A stretch of DNA of 64,000 nucleotides from Prorocentrum cordatum (Eukaryota): contig CAUYUJ010000119.1 of the NCBI GenBank assembly GCA_963575745.1, positions 1-64,000 of the forward strand, written 5' to 3'. A program made the translations under genes and the position numbers. How positions within the stretch are numbered: the stretch's first letter is position 1; each line of letters begins with the position of its first letter. Shown piece after piece: positions 57,401 through 60,283 of this stretch. Below the pieces are notes generated by a model. The model saw only the letters and a list, made by a program, of their open reading frames with translations, did not search any database and was not told the origin of the DNA.

Positions 57401-60283
57401 CCTTATCCCACATGTCTGTGGGGACGCCTTGTCGCGTTGCTGCTGTCTCGAGGGCTCCTCGACAGCCCCGTGGGCCACAATGGGGCGGCCTGTTCCCCCC
57501 TCGCGGCGGGCGTGGGGCTGACCGCCGCTGCAGACGACGCCGAGGGGCCAACTGCCGGAGCCCCTGGCGCCTGCAGCGCTGACGGGGCGCCCGCTGAGGC
57601 GCTCGGCCCCCGTGTGGGGCCGCGGAACGCGCTGTTCCAGCCGCGCGACGAGGGTCCCGGCAGCTGCGCGGAGGGGGCAGCCCGCCTTGTTGCTCCCCCC
57701 GCGCTCTCGTCGGCCCCCGACGCGCGTCCCAAGACGCGGTCGGCCCCCCAGCCTGCCGTCGGGGGTGGCCAAGCTCGCACAGTTGGGCGCGACTTCCCGA
57801 CGGGCCGCGAGGCCGCGACACCTCGCGCCTTCCAGCGCGCCGCCCGCCTGGGCCGAGCCCGCCAAGTGCTCGGGGTCGCGGAGGGCGCCCACAGGGACGC
57901 GATCGAGGGCTCGTTCCGGCGCCTCTCGGTCCCGTGCCGTCCCGACAAGGCACCCGCGGGGTTGACAGCTGCCGAAGCGGTCGCCCGCGTCCAGCGGTGG
58001 AAGGACTTGTGCGACGCGAAGTCCCTGCTGCTGAAGGCGGCGGCGCATCAGTCGGCGTCCGCCGTGCTCGCGCCTCCGCAGGCGAGCCAGCCGTCCAGGC
58101 TTCCGCTTGGGCCGAGGCCGTTGGCCAGGGCGCCCGCCGAGGGGCCCCTCCCGCAGAACACGCGTGCCGTCCTGCACAACGCTGAGGTCAAGACGGGCCT
58201 CGCCAACGAGGAGCGCGCCGCTCGCGGTGGGGACGCACCCGCGTCGTCTACTGGCCGCTCCTTGGCCGAGGTGGAGGCCGAGGATCCGCGCGCCCTGGCG
58301 CGGCCCGCCGACGACCCTGCGTCCCGCTTCAGCCTCCGTGAGCGGCGCGCAGTCCGCGCCCGCCCGGGCCCGCGGGATGAGGCGGTCGAGGACCAGCCCA
58401 ACCGCGGTGGTCACGCGCCGCACTCCGCCTCGCGCACGGGCGCCGCGCGCACCAGGCGCGCCGCCAGGCAACGGCGGGCTTCGATGGCGGCGCTCCCCGC
58501 CCCTGAGGGGGGAGCCGCCACGGCGCCTGGCCGCAGGGCGCGTCGCACAGCCAATGCGCGCCGCTGGGCAGGCGTGGCACGCCCCAGCTCCGCCGCGGGA
58601 GTGGGCTCCCCACAGCGGAGCCCCAGCGCTGCCCGCGGCCGTACGCGGTCTCCAAACCCGTACGGGAGGGACCACACCTCTCCCTCGGGGGGCGGCTCTT
58701 CGCCTCCCGTCGACGGCCCGCTCTCGCCCGAGGAGCCGTCGGAGCCGCCCGCGGGAGTGGCACCGGAGGGCCCCCACGCCAGAGCCCCGAGGTGCCCCCC
58801 GCGCTCGCCCGACGGGTCACCGCCCGCGAGCGTTCGCAGCCGTTCGAGAGCGGAGCCCGCGTGCGACGAGGACGAGGCGTTCGACTCCGACGACGCCCTT
58901 CTGCAAGAGGGCGCGCTCGCCTCTCTGAGCGCCCTCGCGGACTCTTCGATGGACCTTGAGCGCGTCGTGGCGGGCATGAACCCCGAGGTCCTCCGCCGCC
59001 TGCAGACGGTTTTCCCTGGTGGCTCGGCTGAACGAGGACCCCGCGACGAGCGCTCCCGCTCTCATGAGCGCTCCGGCAGCAGGAGGGGTTCTCCCCGCAG
59101 CCACGGGGGCAGGCAGCAGCGCGGTAACAGGGGGCACCCTCCTCGCCGCTCGGGGGGCTCCCCGCCCGCCGCTCGCGCCTCGGCTCGCAGCCGCTCTCGG
59201 GGCCGCGGTCCGCGCGTAGGCTCCGAGCCTCCGCGGCCCTTGCTCCCGCCGCCGCCTCCGCCCCCTCGCCCTTCAGACAGGCGAGAGGCGTCGCGCTCCA
59301 GGGACGCCCGCGGCTCCCCCCGCGCGCCCTCGCGACAGGTGACGTCGCCTCGGCGTCGCGAGGCGCGCGCCCCTCGGGTCGCTCCGAAGCGGCGCCCGAG
59401 CCCAGCTACGGCGCCTCGGCAGGCCGCGCCCCGCCAGGGTGCGAGCTCGGGCGGCGCCCACGCAGGCAGCTACCGCGCGGGCCCCGCTGCTCAGGCCCCC
59501 CCGTCCTCGGTGGGCACGCGCTCCTCCAGCGATGCTGCTGCGGCCCCGCAGGGCGGAGGGCGTGCCGCCGAGGAACGGGGGTCTTCGAGCGGCCTCGCGC
59601 CTGGCCGGGGCTCGGGGCGCGAGCTGCATCCCAGCGGCACCCACAGCGGCGACCCCGGGAGCGCCGCGGCTGCAGCCTTCGCAGCGCGGCGCACGGCTTC
59701 CGAGGCCGTCGAGCAGCCCTTGCCCACTCTGACTCAGGGGAGTGCGGCCCCACTGTCCCCTATCTCGGATTCCCGCGTTCCGCGTCTGAACTTCCCTCAC
59801 CTGTCCGCCGACGAAGCGGCGCGCCTGGGCCTGCAGGCGCCGACCGTCGAGGCCATCTTGGCCAGGGCCCCTGGGCCCCCTCAACGCGTCCAGACCTGCG
59901 CTCTGGTTCCTGCCTCCGCCCTAGTAGCGGCTTGGGGGAACAGGCGGGGCAGTGGCGCCTCGACGCAGCCGCCCGCTGCTCTCTCCCCGAGCATCCTGCC
60001 GCCCCTGGGGTTGGCCAGTCTCGATGAGGGCGCAGGCTCCGCCGAGGTGGCCGCAGGTGACGTCAGGGGAGCTTGCGCCGAGGCTCCCCAGACGACCCTG
60101 AATCGGGCCCTCGAGCGCCTCATTTTGGCGCTTCGGCAAGGCGCAAGCTTCGCCAAGGTGGCCGCAGGGGACGTCATGGGAGCGTGCGCCGAGGCTCCCC
60201 AGACGACCCTGAATCTGGTCCTCGAGTGCATCCTTCTGGCGCTTCAGCAGGGGAGCCACGTTTCACGACACTGGCTTAAGTAG
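51413..60283 (+). CDS. Polyprotein up to 2956 aa: Pro-rich repeats, DIRS-type RT, RNase H, J-domain-like module, Arg/Ser-rich tail (true start uncertain)
   Basis: RT motifs GAFRVPKD...DRLILNP, DDLREFYYTF, LAMGD..AV, NIDD; RNase H motifs TDAS, HINILE, LLDS.V..GA...GRSSS, YVPT...ADDPTR; J-like RQVLGV...FRRLSVPCRPDK at 57857-58035. Confidence 0.85.
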   Translation: MPPPLGGLCLSHRLPRAGGGVEQRGLSPAALDGRCPPLGDGRVQRLRRLLLRAAGPVPVAEALALRLAARCGACSARAGPPRGPSACLRARSPGARQGSGPASRGRCLRRRPLSAPRSARGGPHRLAGPSPSDGPPEPFRASFARSRSLARALLFLSLLAAWMAHPLVGGGPIWPDLRSFATAAAARPLAGRRSRNETAQRSAASATRTQKLPPFLPSPPSSSSIEAGGNDEDEEGYEEAEDLGLRSEEQTARGRNGLLLAPHQPPPRSTHRPQPTATLSQPHARRTAGEEAERAKGTALGTGEWEEESPANLHLLTHSPPPLTTPWLDRGPACSAGTEWPLRAAFRVPGTDAAGLSSSWWDASSAEPPALLASAFDVQRGVPLICTLPPPTLQGRRPLPPPGLAELGIGPPPGLGPPSAAERRPPSPRVPTGLPPRPPPGLVAPLEPDVWRVESLPRFSGMEAGARVPPAISPCTPAESFLVGGGSPFQAGRAGPPPGLADPEALPSLHRNAVDPASLWACAARDLGWYGDFGGLPPPTSLVGGVGAPAASGPSPRAGARDLLHSLGLFGDPASSLSALPPHMRTYAMASAADAAVSRGVLVAAACQATPPPAAAVPSRGAAGSGTCDLPRSLGVHGDPPTPPPDTASVLAESTSEFGCTGDPGGLWPPTCPASGVDVSGARNPTPCGAGASRVGNGTSSAHVRCPSSLRRLDASPAAFVSPTSGAICSSPRDVLRAPRVRGDLPAPLSDSAGHSSAHDLPRSLGVPSDLADVADRMAALPLATPRPSAKPFAAGPRASAWATRPCLGRRLRRGGRRGRRGPASCGSPVGPQHGADVLASVSSPSPAAGAGLPPSSSSATGVSERLRSGPVRIFGRPQLFVHSDAGDRTAARLACYLGAARSRRARPARGSDAADLPVHVHRSAGGGPRLPRGRMVPHGGGAHSMSRHQSAHGARGAVPVFTPRGLPLAVRAGRVHEGAAGFSDAPRRRARRRASPAAASRTQAAQDSKGASQGTEGATPEAVTGPLLPVTCEGAASSGRGSAPQSVRADAAAAARRAWAQRGREGRNALLQRCWCGPAGRSSFRHHASRFAPSRPSYPPGHFGHRCPQSSSPRTGCAAPESGVLAGARPVACTPAALAKVAPFVADVSSLLRLFPGANIDITHWAAALSQVGMGARCSLGSFSRSSLRALDRDDPYFLGPPPRDPWPCPPAPPLGPPPDGLSARRRERWRLRRAARTLAQYSVIALNWLTLGHPSFAPAEARVRATASPCQEGVRSRIERLCRIAVRLARGGKSDLGRAFAKFDSTEVSLHGLATHVVALEASFTSSSSVPAPMRHCPTSAPAVPGSLASAAAWDPTQAEPFDLKVRASRIKWDYSPEFDPTPFLSDARVREAFLDPEVMRLPSAEWPSGQKGARVHMDRAELWALLQKWDACGALYLTPASDLAWDEACGAFRVPKDSDFDRLILNPTVVNSRCASISSSTQRLGQGFLLCRLGLEPGEWLAVSCDDLREFYYTFRVPPARARRNALRVRLPSARFKAFRAWRPELEGVDVAPCLNALAMGDNMAVEIANSAHEGVLRSFGALRPHEQVVHRLPFPRGPFVEMLNIDDHTGFQKLSWRGTAPRPDDPHRRDREVFAACDKGYPRVGLVQHPGKRARGETHKVVVGAEVEGRIGIVCAPLVRTVALCRLTLIQIYLGITTRSLLSSLVGCWVQVFLYRRPLLAIFTHVYNFLSRLATEDGIEYDLPPSVRDELLACTFLAFTAITDLRARPCSEVFGTDASLGWGGVVRAPISSQLSAELWRRSEHGGWHTILHNRSLLAVLSRGESLGPELTQLHRDLGLPSLEPPVAPRWVTELSEAIRFRLAYKWEFRMPRHINILETTVYKSLCKYCCIRIPDSRIPVLLDSKVALGASAHGRSSSPGLSHVLSTTLPYVIGGGLYMGGLYVPTDVHRADDPTRNRPVRPPSIPPPSWLVEAEAGDFTRFDCVAYADSRAPYPTCLWGRLVALLLSRGLLDSPVGHNGAACSPLAAGVGLTAAADDAEGPTAGAPGACSADGAPAEALGPRVGPRNALFQPRDEGPGSCAEGAARLVAPPALSSAPDARPKTRSAPQPAVGGGQARTVGRDFPTGREAATPRAFQRAARLGRARQVLGVAEGAHRDAIEGSFRRLSVPCRPDKAPAGLTAAEAVARVQRWKDLCDAKSLLLKAAAHQSASAVLAPPQASQPSRLPLGPRPLARAPAEGPLPQNTRAVLHNAEVKTGLANEERAARGGDAPASSTGRSLAEVEAEDPRALARPADDPASRFSLRERRAVRARPGPRDEAVEDQPNRGGHAPHSASRTGAARTRRAARQRRASMAALPAPEGGAATAPGRRARRTANARRWAGVARPSSAAGVGSPQRSPSAARGRTRSPNPYGRDHTSPSGGGSSPPVDGPLSPEEPSEPPAGVAPEGPHARAPRCPPRSPDGSPPASVRSRSRAEPACDEDEAFDSDDALLQEGALASLSALADSSMDLERVVAGMNPEVLRRLQTVFPGGSAERGPRDERSRSHERSGSRRGSPRSHGGRQQRGNRGHPPRRSGGSPPAARASARSRSRGRGPRVGSEPPRPLLPPPPPPPRPSDRREASRSRDARGSPRAPSRQVTSPRRREARAPRVAPKRRPSPATAPRQAAPRQGASSGGAHAGSYRAGPAAQAPPSSVGTRSSSDAAAAPQGGGRAAEERGSSSGLAPGRGSGRELHPSGTHSGDPGSAAAAAFAARRTASEAVEQPLPTLTQGSAAPLSPISDSRVPRLNFPHLSADEAARLGLQAPTVEAILARAPGPPQRVQTCALVPASALVAAWGNRRGSGASTQPPAALSPSILPPLGLASLDEGAGSAEVAAGDVRGACAEAPQTTLNRALERLILALRQGASFAKVAAGDVMGACAEAPQTTLNLVLECILLALQQGSHVSRHWLK
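53913..54485 (+). CDS. Overlapping gag-like ORF in an alternative frame (frame open from 53172)
   Basis: FIDQQAGDRG.LEAAWFLTG.EP...PFSPLVDFRW....EYMKEL followed by a K/P-rich end resembles the C-terminus of gag-like ORFs I recall from dinoflagellate DIRS-type elements. Confidence 0.6.
   Translation: MALMCLHQSPALALQQGRGSRPAAHPLLGFLSDYAQAPSASSGDLNSSSTQMRGIARRRAWHATLAQHGPAVRDPLGVQTLLTCQCMFIDQQAGDRGCLEAAWFLTGVEPTPCRVTSQHTEREAQSPFSPLVDFRWLSAQGEYMKELQVFRTRLDAERAAALPQQPPHVPKQPRTPKVPPKVPKVPPQKQ

Follow-up and report, generated by a model that had tools for sequence, protein, structure and literature searches.

Retrotransposons are known to acquire accessory enzymes, for example DNA methyltransferases or hydrolases. 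Split direct repeats of the Ngaro/PAT type were reportedly described for tyrosine-recombinase retrotransposons by Goodwin and Poulter in 2004. Among dinoflagellates, the closest described counterparts are the SymbioDIRS elements, in which the repeats are arranged in the order A-coding-B-A-B according to the legend of Fig. 1e in PMC5890265 (de Mendoza et al. 2018). The available part of that article further reports that the reverse transcriptases (RTs) of the Symbiodinium DIRS elements align poorly with the Pfam seeds, describes the recombinase as a separate open reading frame (ORF) and does not seem to mention a 2A peptide. In this study, a stretch of 64,000 nucleotides of Prorocentrum cordatum DNA (contig CAUYUJ010000119.1, positions 1 to 64,000, assembly GCA_963575745.1), referred to as the window, was analysed. 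It contains a 9.9-kb element (51140-61055) in the order A1 - coding - B1-A2-B2, which is one of the arrangements of DIRS-order retrotransposons. The element probably represents a recombinase-less, DIRS-like retrotransposon with a divergent J-domain of the Hsp40 type in its Pol frame; forms of this domain with the tripeptide His-Pro-Asp (HPD) would recruit Hsp70, and the form with Arg-Pro-Asp (RPD), which is present in the window, would be a relic.

The original prediction had placed a J-domain at 57857..58035, in frame downstream of RT and RNase H, with an RPD one transition away from HPD. All three points were borne out. One plus-strand frame of 2959 codons is free of stop codons from 51404 to 60283 and spans both RT/RNase H and the J-like peptide, which is encoded at 57857-58035 (+), and the arginine of RPD is specified by CGT (57938-57940), which differs from the histidine codon CAT by one transition. 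The only Pfam family matched here was DnaJ (PF00226; E 2.2e-4 and 21.7 bits for a piece of 100 amino acids; E 0.015 and 15.9 bits for the translation of 1827 amino acids). When the single sequence was compared with the PDB by phmmer, 21 of the 23 sequences with E ≤ 10 were J-domain proteins (best E 0.0028). A HMMER search with 57680-58340 against 1.84 billion representative proteins yielded eight proteins with E ≤ 1e-3, to which a later search with the J profile added solely the fragment P0059 (relatives are cited here by such numbers). The resulting alignment of six rows is invariant at L(G)V, R, E, FRR in helix II, PD, L and DAKS.LL, and the profile derived from it matched solved J-domains with E values down to 2.7e-7 (J-domain of RabJ/DNAJC27); J-domain proteins made up 56 of the 60 entries among the matches listed. 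A further profile was built from four diverged relatives, with the window copy and its near-identical sister excluded. When the six frames of the window were searched in 900 pieces, this profile found a single match, located at 57815-58051 (E 7.5e-32), and the next best place reached an E value of 0.33.

Considered by itself, the Pfam value of the window copy would be marginal, as the E value of 0.015 obtained with the long ORF rises to about 1 when it is adjusted for a scan of all six frames of the 64 kb. This figure speaks for a chance resemblance in a GC-rich frame with many alanine and arginine residues. Such a coincidence is hardly conceivable and was rejected in view of the Pfam scores of the relatives, since homologues with HPD attain the Pfam cut-off, of the match of the family profile to the PDB and of the relatives-only profile, which hit exactly this site; the fold matches to J-domains described below also stand against it. 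Judged from the profiles and the predicted fold, the latter with moderate scores, the stretch is evidently a genuine, divergent J-domain. In the ESM Atlas, only weak DnaJ leads were obtained (score 0.80, below the line of 0.9), and a scan of viral contigs revealed no relative. A metagenome locus (L001) matched the J profile over 33 residues; it is otherwise unlike the element and was discarded as an unrelated J-protein.

With a family-only alignment of six rows, AlphaFold produced a model of 57800-58099 with a predicted local distance difference test (pLDDT) value of 83.2 and a predicted template modelling (pTM) score of 0.68. It contains helices at residues 8-24, 32-46 and 57-90, and RPD is located in the loop after the second helix. 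At these moderate scores, the model thus shows the hairpin of helices II and III, the loop and the flanking helices I and IV of a J fold, with helices III and IV running together as one long helix. In a Foldseek comparison to the PDB, J-domain entries accounted for about 40 of 44 among the matches listed, with a root mean square deviation of about 2 Å over 54-60 columns. With VIA-align, a search independent of Foldseek, J or J-like domains likewise occupied 12 of the top 13 rows (Z 8.3-6.0). The first row is a chain of the Tim14-Tim16 complex (2guz_B; Z 8.3; 1.8 Å over 62 residues; 18% identity), and rows 1-4 are tied in Z within about 1.

The state of the tripeptide differs between the relatives. 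P0051 and P0052, which NCBI assigns to Prorocentrum cordatum, are near-identical to the window across the J region and carry RPD. Canonical HPD is present in P0054, P0055 and P0056 (46-62% identity) and in P0059, and P0057 possesses two repeats with HRPD in each. The only match outside the family in the search of 1.84 billion representatives was P0058, an ordinary DnaJ-domain protein (36% identity, E 3.7e-4). With the Pfam DnaJ model, P0057 (28.3 bits) and P0056 (27.9 bits) just attain the curated cut-off of 27.8 bits, and P0054, P0055, P0052 and P0051 reach 25.7, 19.9, 19.7 and 17.3 bits, respectively. A proline two residues ahead of RPD in the window copy is absent from P0054-P0056; P0057 with HRPD has one nearby. 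Because RPD occurs here and HPD in P0054, P0055, P0056 and P0059, the window copy would best be named a J-like domain, derived from a family of HPD-bearing J-domains.

The J-domain aligns with that of P0056 without gaps, with 40 of 71 columns identical as counted from the alignment. In P0054 and P0056, it is followed by the same basic block as in the window, for which no Pfam family was found (58160-58519). This block shares 79 identities with P0056 over about 120 ungapped columns and 73% identity with P0054 over 83 amino acids. The spacer between J-domain and basic block differs in length by more than 100 residues between the window and P0056, which starts inside the homology to the linker. 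As conserved, gap-free islands amid variable linkers, the J-domain and the basic block argue for past constraint on both.

In the long relatives of the RT region, an insert of about 300 amino acids separates RT from RNase H, which is followed first by a 2A-like peptide and then by a tyrosine recombinase. The insert of P0003-P0013 (e.g. residues 482-799 of P0004) shows the motifs ELFSGQG and GPPCWSF of C5-DNA-methyltransferases, and a Pfam search with it gave nothing at E ≤ 0.1. It splits RNase H, as it sits after the motif DAS and before the remaining part of RNase H, and it is missing in the window element. The 2A-like motif D[VI]ExNPGP was detected in 7 of 59 proteins (P0004, P0006, P0007, P0009, P0010, P0012 and P0013); it comes after a leucine-rich helix, exactly between RNase H and the recombinase, whose tail displays the motifs LRGSGAT, RGRW and Y. 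Given this location of the 2A motif, the recombinase of these relatives may be set free during translation.

The window and P0002 follow the other relatives through '...RNRPVRPPS..PP.WL...FD...LWGRLVALLLSRG', and homology stops at about 57455, within the relic of the 2A peptide. Of the latter, only the hydrophobic lead-in is retained, and no NPG occurs anywhere in the ORF of the window. Downstream of the relic, a linker rich in alanine, proline and glycine, the J-domain, the basic block and a low-complexity tail follow. When eleven long relatives were compared to the window by tblastn, only RT and RNase H could be aligned and no recombinase was found. A hidden Markov model (HMM) of eight recombinase tails had no match in the element either, its best hit in the window (E 0.076) being located outside of it. 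The J-domain occupies the position of the 2A peptide and the recombinase of the relatives, in agreement with the original prediction, which had seen it where the recombinase normally lies. The proposed assignment to the DIRS type held for the A1 ... B1-A2-B2 repeats and failed for the tyrosine recombinase, none of which is encoded in the window. Since tblastn, the recombinase HMM and Pfam all revealed no recombinase, the element is, as far as can be judged from sequence, DIRS-derived but recombinase-less.

For the region 55700-57460, 49 relatives with E ≤ 1e-3 were obtained, some of which are named Amphidinium carterae. As Pfam did not detect an RT domain (RVT_1) in the window copy, its designation as RT rests on a chain of homology to RVT_1-positive proteins: the region is homologous to P0045 (E 5.7e-16) and P0047 (E 1.9e-12), which both pass RVT_1. 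Among the RT relatives, two distant ones pass RVT_1, three carry a DNA_methylase domain and three show a weak C-terminal Phage_integrase match. The DD motif of the RT is nearly invariant, and the motifs DAS...INILE...DSK presumably represent RNase H. A profile of RT and RNase H gave no meaningful match in the PDB. In a quick, unfinished RT tree with midpoint root, in which many rows are fragments, the window pairs with P0005 (support 98). This pair is nested among rows with methyltransferase insert and 2A, a position consistent with secondary loss.

Within the element, the J-domain is separated from the left repeat by 6.7 kb and from the right repeats by 2.6 kb. CT-rich microsatellites with CCCCTT, CCTCTT and CCTCGT units border the element on both sides (50748-51139 and 61056-62250), and it seems to be inserted into, or bordered by, a single microsatellite tract. 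P0051 and P0052, which lie on two other contigs (767 kb and 307 kb), combine the same J piece with pieces of ORF1, an ORF upstream of Pol, and with the terminal repeats from the 3' end of the element. Because of this pairing, the J-domain is most plausibly assigned to the element itself and not to a neighbouring host exon. It could be argued that the retrotransposon landed beside the gene of a J-protein and that the shared frame is an accident of a G+C content of 65-77%. Other frames are indeed open over 147-522 codons in the same region, and the gene models of P0051 and P0052 link the J piece to host domains: P0051 is joined to a cold-shock domain (CSD) and to a weak, sub-threshold 3'-5' exonuclease match, and P0052 bears a phosphatase name from UniRef. 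Against this stand the depth of the J-domain within the repeats, the fact that the J piece recurs with the corresponding 5' and 3' parts of the element on the two other contigs, and the order RNase H-linker-J, which is repeated in P0053 and P0002, and an origin from a host exon is therefore very improbable. P0051 and P0052 may be chimeric gene models or may reflect a real spliced ORF1-J transcript, for which the implied acceptor in the window lies just before AATPRAFQ at about 57812; such a transcript, if real, would give rise to a gag-J protein that lacks RT.

In the mechanism proposed here, the ancestor of the element would have had the organization RT-(DNMT)-RNase H-2A-tyrosine recombinase, where DNMT is a DNA methyltransferase. 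In the lineage of the window, the region past the 2A peptide would have been swapped for a J-tail, which consists of linker, J-domain and basic block and ends in a long disordered stretch, and decay of the 2A site would have left this J-tail covalently joined to RT/RNase H. In lineages with HPD, the J-domain most likely brings host Hsp70 to the RT complex, where Hsp70 might fold or activate the polymerase or remodel a complex of RNA or cDNA and protein. The histidine of HPD is needed for the stimulation of the Hsp70 ATPase. With RPD in place of HPD, this stimulation has probably been lost in the subfamily of the window, in which the domain would be a relic; at best, it would still serve as a J-like domain that works independently of Hsp70 or is confined to binding. 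Since the element itself lacks a recombinase, its integration probably relies on the enzyme of related elements, acting in trans.

A more far-reaching version may tentatively be considered, in which the lineage exchanged its 2A-released recombinase for the J-tail and kept spreading, with the J-domain acting as an Hsp70 co-chaperone for retrotransposition. If so, the mobility of the element could be coupled to the heat-stress or Hsp70 state of the host, integration would proceed via a borrowed recombinase acting in trans or by a recombinase-independent route, and the RPD subfamily would represent a later loss or a regulator without HPD.

Several observations weigh against the assignment of a J-domain with a role in the element. 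The window copy lacks the tripeptide HPD and stays below the Pfam DnaJ cut-off (21.7 versus 27.8 bits). Foldseek gave no match in the PDB at E ≤ 1e-3 (best E 0.025), a VIA-align Z of about 8 is within reach of helical models by common arrangement, and a single-sequence AlphaFold model consists of just two long helices forming a hairpin. No link to an RT was seen for P0054-P0056 and P0059, which bear HPD and could thus be host or domesticated genes. RPD is common to all three near-identical copies (window, P0051 and P0052), so the subfamily has spread or been duplicated without HPD, which therefore seems dispensable for propagation; either it is dispensable for spread, or the copies were made by other means. 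Of the two outcomes that would have refuted the original prediction, neither was observed: a J-domain hit and fold were obtained, and the fusion extends beyond this copy, as the order of RNase H, linker and J start recurs in P0002 (73% identity overall) and P0053 (98% identity), which reaches from the end of RNase H across the linker to the first J residues. Both proteins stop 6-11 residues into the J-domain, P0002 at a contig end. In P0002, RT/RNase H appears far better conserved by eye than the linker. A DnaJ match at E ≤ 0.1 was present in none of the 49 RT relatives, and an extended homolog search yielded no further protein joining RT and J.

Some of these findings would also fit a passive capture, in which a fragment of a host J-gene was taken up when the recombinase was lost and never had a role in the element, RPD being a sign of decay in non-autonomous copies. 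RPD in the window subfamily and HRPD in P0057, the lack of a recombinase, the mostly low-complexity tail and the missing DnaJ match in all 49 RT relatives are in line with such an origin. It remains doubtful, since the J-domain and the basic block are free of gaps across lineages of 46-62% identity in which the linkers vary, and since FRR of helix II and PD are invariant in six of six aligned rows. Furthermore, the junction is retained in P0002, whose RT/RNase H has diverged by 27%, and no close cellular donor was found among the 1.84 billion representatives, the sole match outside the family being that of 36% identity (E 3.7e-4).

The domain could also be a regulator or decoy without HPD, which binds Hsp70 or a J-partner without activating it and thereby blunts a chaperone-dependent control by the host. 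Pam16/Tim16, a J-like protein without HPD, behaves in this way towards Pam18/Tim14, and the Tim14-Tim16 chain 2guz_B provided the best structural row. The RPD is carried by three intact-looking copies, and the ORF of the window extends without interruption for more than 1,780 codons, its G+C at the third codon position (GC3) being of a coding type. In addition, the available part of PMC8616336 reports an involvement of the plant J-protein SILENZIO in methylation-linked transposon silencing. Against a decoy, the first four structural rows are tied in Z within about 1, and a lone exchange of histidine for arginine in a young subfamily is explained most simply as neutral or as loss of function. 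The proline two residues before RPD, which has no counterpart in the HPD-bearing P0054-P0056, also speaks against it, and a regulatory role of this kind is unlikely. A divergent J-domain that would recruit Hsp70 in its HPD forms and is a relic in its RPD form thus remains the preferred reading. The features of the element are compiled in Table 1.

Table 1. Features of the element in the window (positions refer to the 64,000-nucleotide stretch)
Feature	Position	Strand	Basis or remark
Terminal repeat A1, 60 bp	51140..51199	+	100% identical to 60806-60865
ORF1, 439 codons, possibly gag-like	53166..54485	+	frame differs from Pol; codon-position G+C
Pol-like ORF	54935..60283	+	part of the frame open since 51404
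Divergent reverse-transcriptase region	55700..56863	+	39-57% identity to 40+ dinoflagellate-type relatives
RNase H-like region (DAS...INILE...DSK motifs)	56744..57442	+	alignment with the relatives' second conserved block
2A-like peptide relic (LWGRLVALLLSRG..., without NPGP)	57416..57484	+	junction alignment
Ala/Pro/Gly-rich linker	57485..57820	+	weakly conserved, indel-rich versus P0002, P0056
J-domain, divergent	57821..58069	+	Pfam, family profiles, predicted fold
J-domain parts	helix I 57821-57871; helix II 57893-57937; RPD 57938-57946; helices III/IV 57968-58069	+	
Conserved basic block (RAVLHNAEV ... RERRAV.AR.GPRDEAVED.PN.GGHAP ... ALPAPEGG)	58160..58519	+	kept in P0054, P0056
Low-complexity Arg/Ser/Pro-rich tail, to stop codon	58520..60283	+	translation
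Terminal repeat B1	60650..60805	+	60650-60813 99% identical to 60900-61063 (164 nt)
Terminal repeat A2	60806..60865	+	100% identical to A1
Terminal repeat B2, right end	60900..61063	+	99% identical to B1; microsatellite beyond

The G+C content of the window ranges from 49 to 77% across steps of 2 kb. Parts of the stretch occur in 17 listed entries of sequencing runs, with no RNA entry among them. Position 54935 is the last in-frame ATG upstream of the homology to the relatives, which starts at about 55127. In the long frame, the codon-position G+C is coding-like over RT/RNase H (G+C at the second codon position (GC2) about 0.5, GC3 about 0.75) and likewise over the J region (GC2 0.60-0.67, GC3 0.84-0.88), across which other frames stay open for 147-522 codons, too. 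A minus-strand reading in this region (522-codon ORF, 57251-58816) was discarded; it matched no Pfam family, and every homologue corresponds to the plus frame. Over ORF1, coding-type codon-position G+C falls in the frame of ORF1 and not in the long frame. No Pfam family was found for ORF1, pieces of which recur in the gene models of P0051 and P0052; both models include the C-terminal part of ORF1 as an 'exon'. Pfam searches with 14 further ORF pieces of the window gave nothing relevant. The Pol ORF is closed by a tandem duplication of 111 bp (60029-60250, 87% identity); P0051 and P0052 each hold three units of this type. A direct repeat of 61 bp (87% identity) occurs inside the element at 54611-54671 and 59509-59569, in differing frames. 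Outside of it, a TA-rich microsatellite (TATATA...; 63400-63560) gives YIYIYI in several frames.

A J-domain on RT/RNase H would provide a direct handle on the Hsp70 dependence of retroelement polymerases, and with the HPD and RPD forms a natural pair is available for comparison. The element would furthermore represent a DIRS-type retrotransposon that lost its defining recombinase and kept intact ends. As the host is apparently a bloom-forming dinoflagellate under study for heat stress, a link between chaperones and transposons would be testable. If the J-domain is a passively captured relic, the finding amounts to a modest annotation note.

The statement of the original prediction that no DIRS-type element like this has been described agrees with the literature as far as result listings, abstract beginnings and term look-ups reveal it. 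Within the listings and abstract beginnings returned by full-text searches, no retrotransposon-encoded J-domain was found. The term 'DnaJ' is absent from the main text of PMC5890265 and from the searchable text of PMC6338049 and of the preprint 10.64898/2026.05.21.726589, and in the available part of PMC9998398 only DnaJ genes of the host are mentioned. No earlier description was thus found of a DIRS-derived element with a J-domain accessory and without a recombinase of its own, which would be new here.

Among the known systems, SymbioDIRS and SymbioDIRS-Dnmt3, as far as covered by the available part of PMC5890265, resemble the element of the window in the RT, which is too divergent for Pfam, in the A-coding-B-A-B repeats and in the dinoflagellate host. 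The relatives of the window RT also resemble them in carrying an insert of the DNMT type and a tyrosine recombinase; the window element itself has neither the DNMT insert nor the recombinase, and a J-domain tail is present in their place. With the Ngaro/PAT elements, the window shares the A1 ... B1-A2-B2 ends, but the recombinase that defines them is absent.

Compared to canonical J-domains of Hsp40/DnaJ proteins, of which RabJ/DNAJC27 (2ys8, 6jmg) is the nearest one solved, the domain of the window has the hairpin of helix II, loop and helix III, the basic helix II (FRR), PD(K/R) past the loop and L.D in helix III/IV in common. It differs from them in RPD, in the score below the cut-off, in the merged helices III and IV and in its setting within a retrotransposon polyprotein. 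Pam16/Tim16 (2guz_B), in turn, combines a J fold with the lack of HPD, as in the window, and was the top structural row, tied in Z with true J-domains; it functions in mitochondrial import and has only 18% identity to the window. J-domains are also carried by the T antigens of polyomaviruses, and the polymerase of hepadnaviruses needs Hsp70 and Hsp40. These viruses differ from the window element in that they are no retrotransposons, and no sequence relation to them was seen; what they have in common with it is a mobile genetic parasite with a J-domain of its own or with a polymerase that depends on Hsp70/Hsp40.

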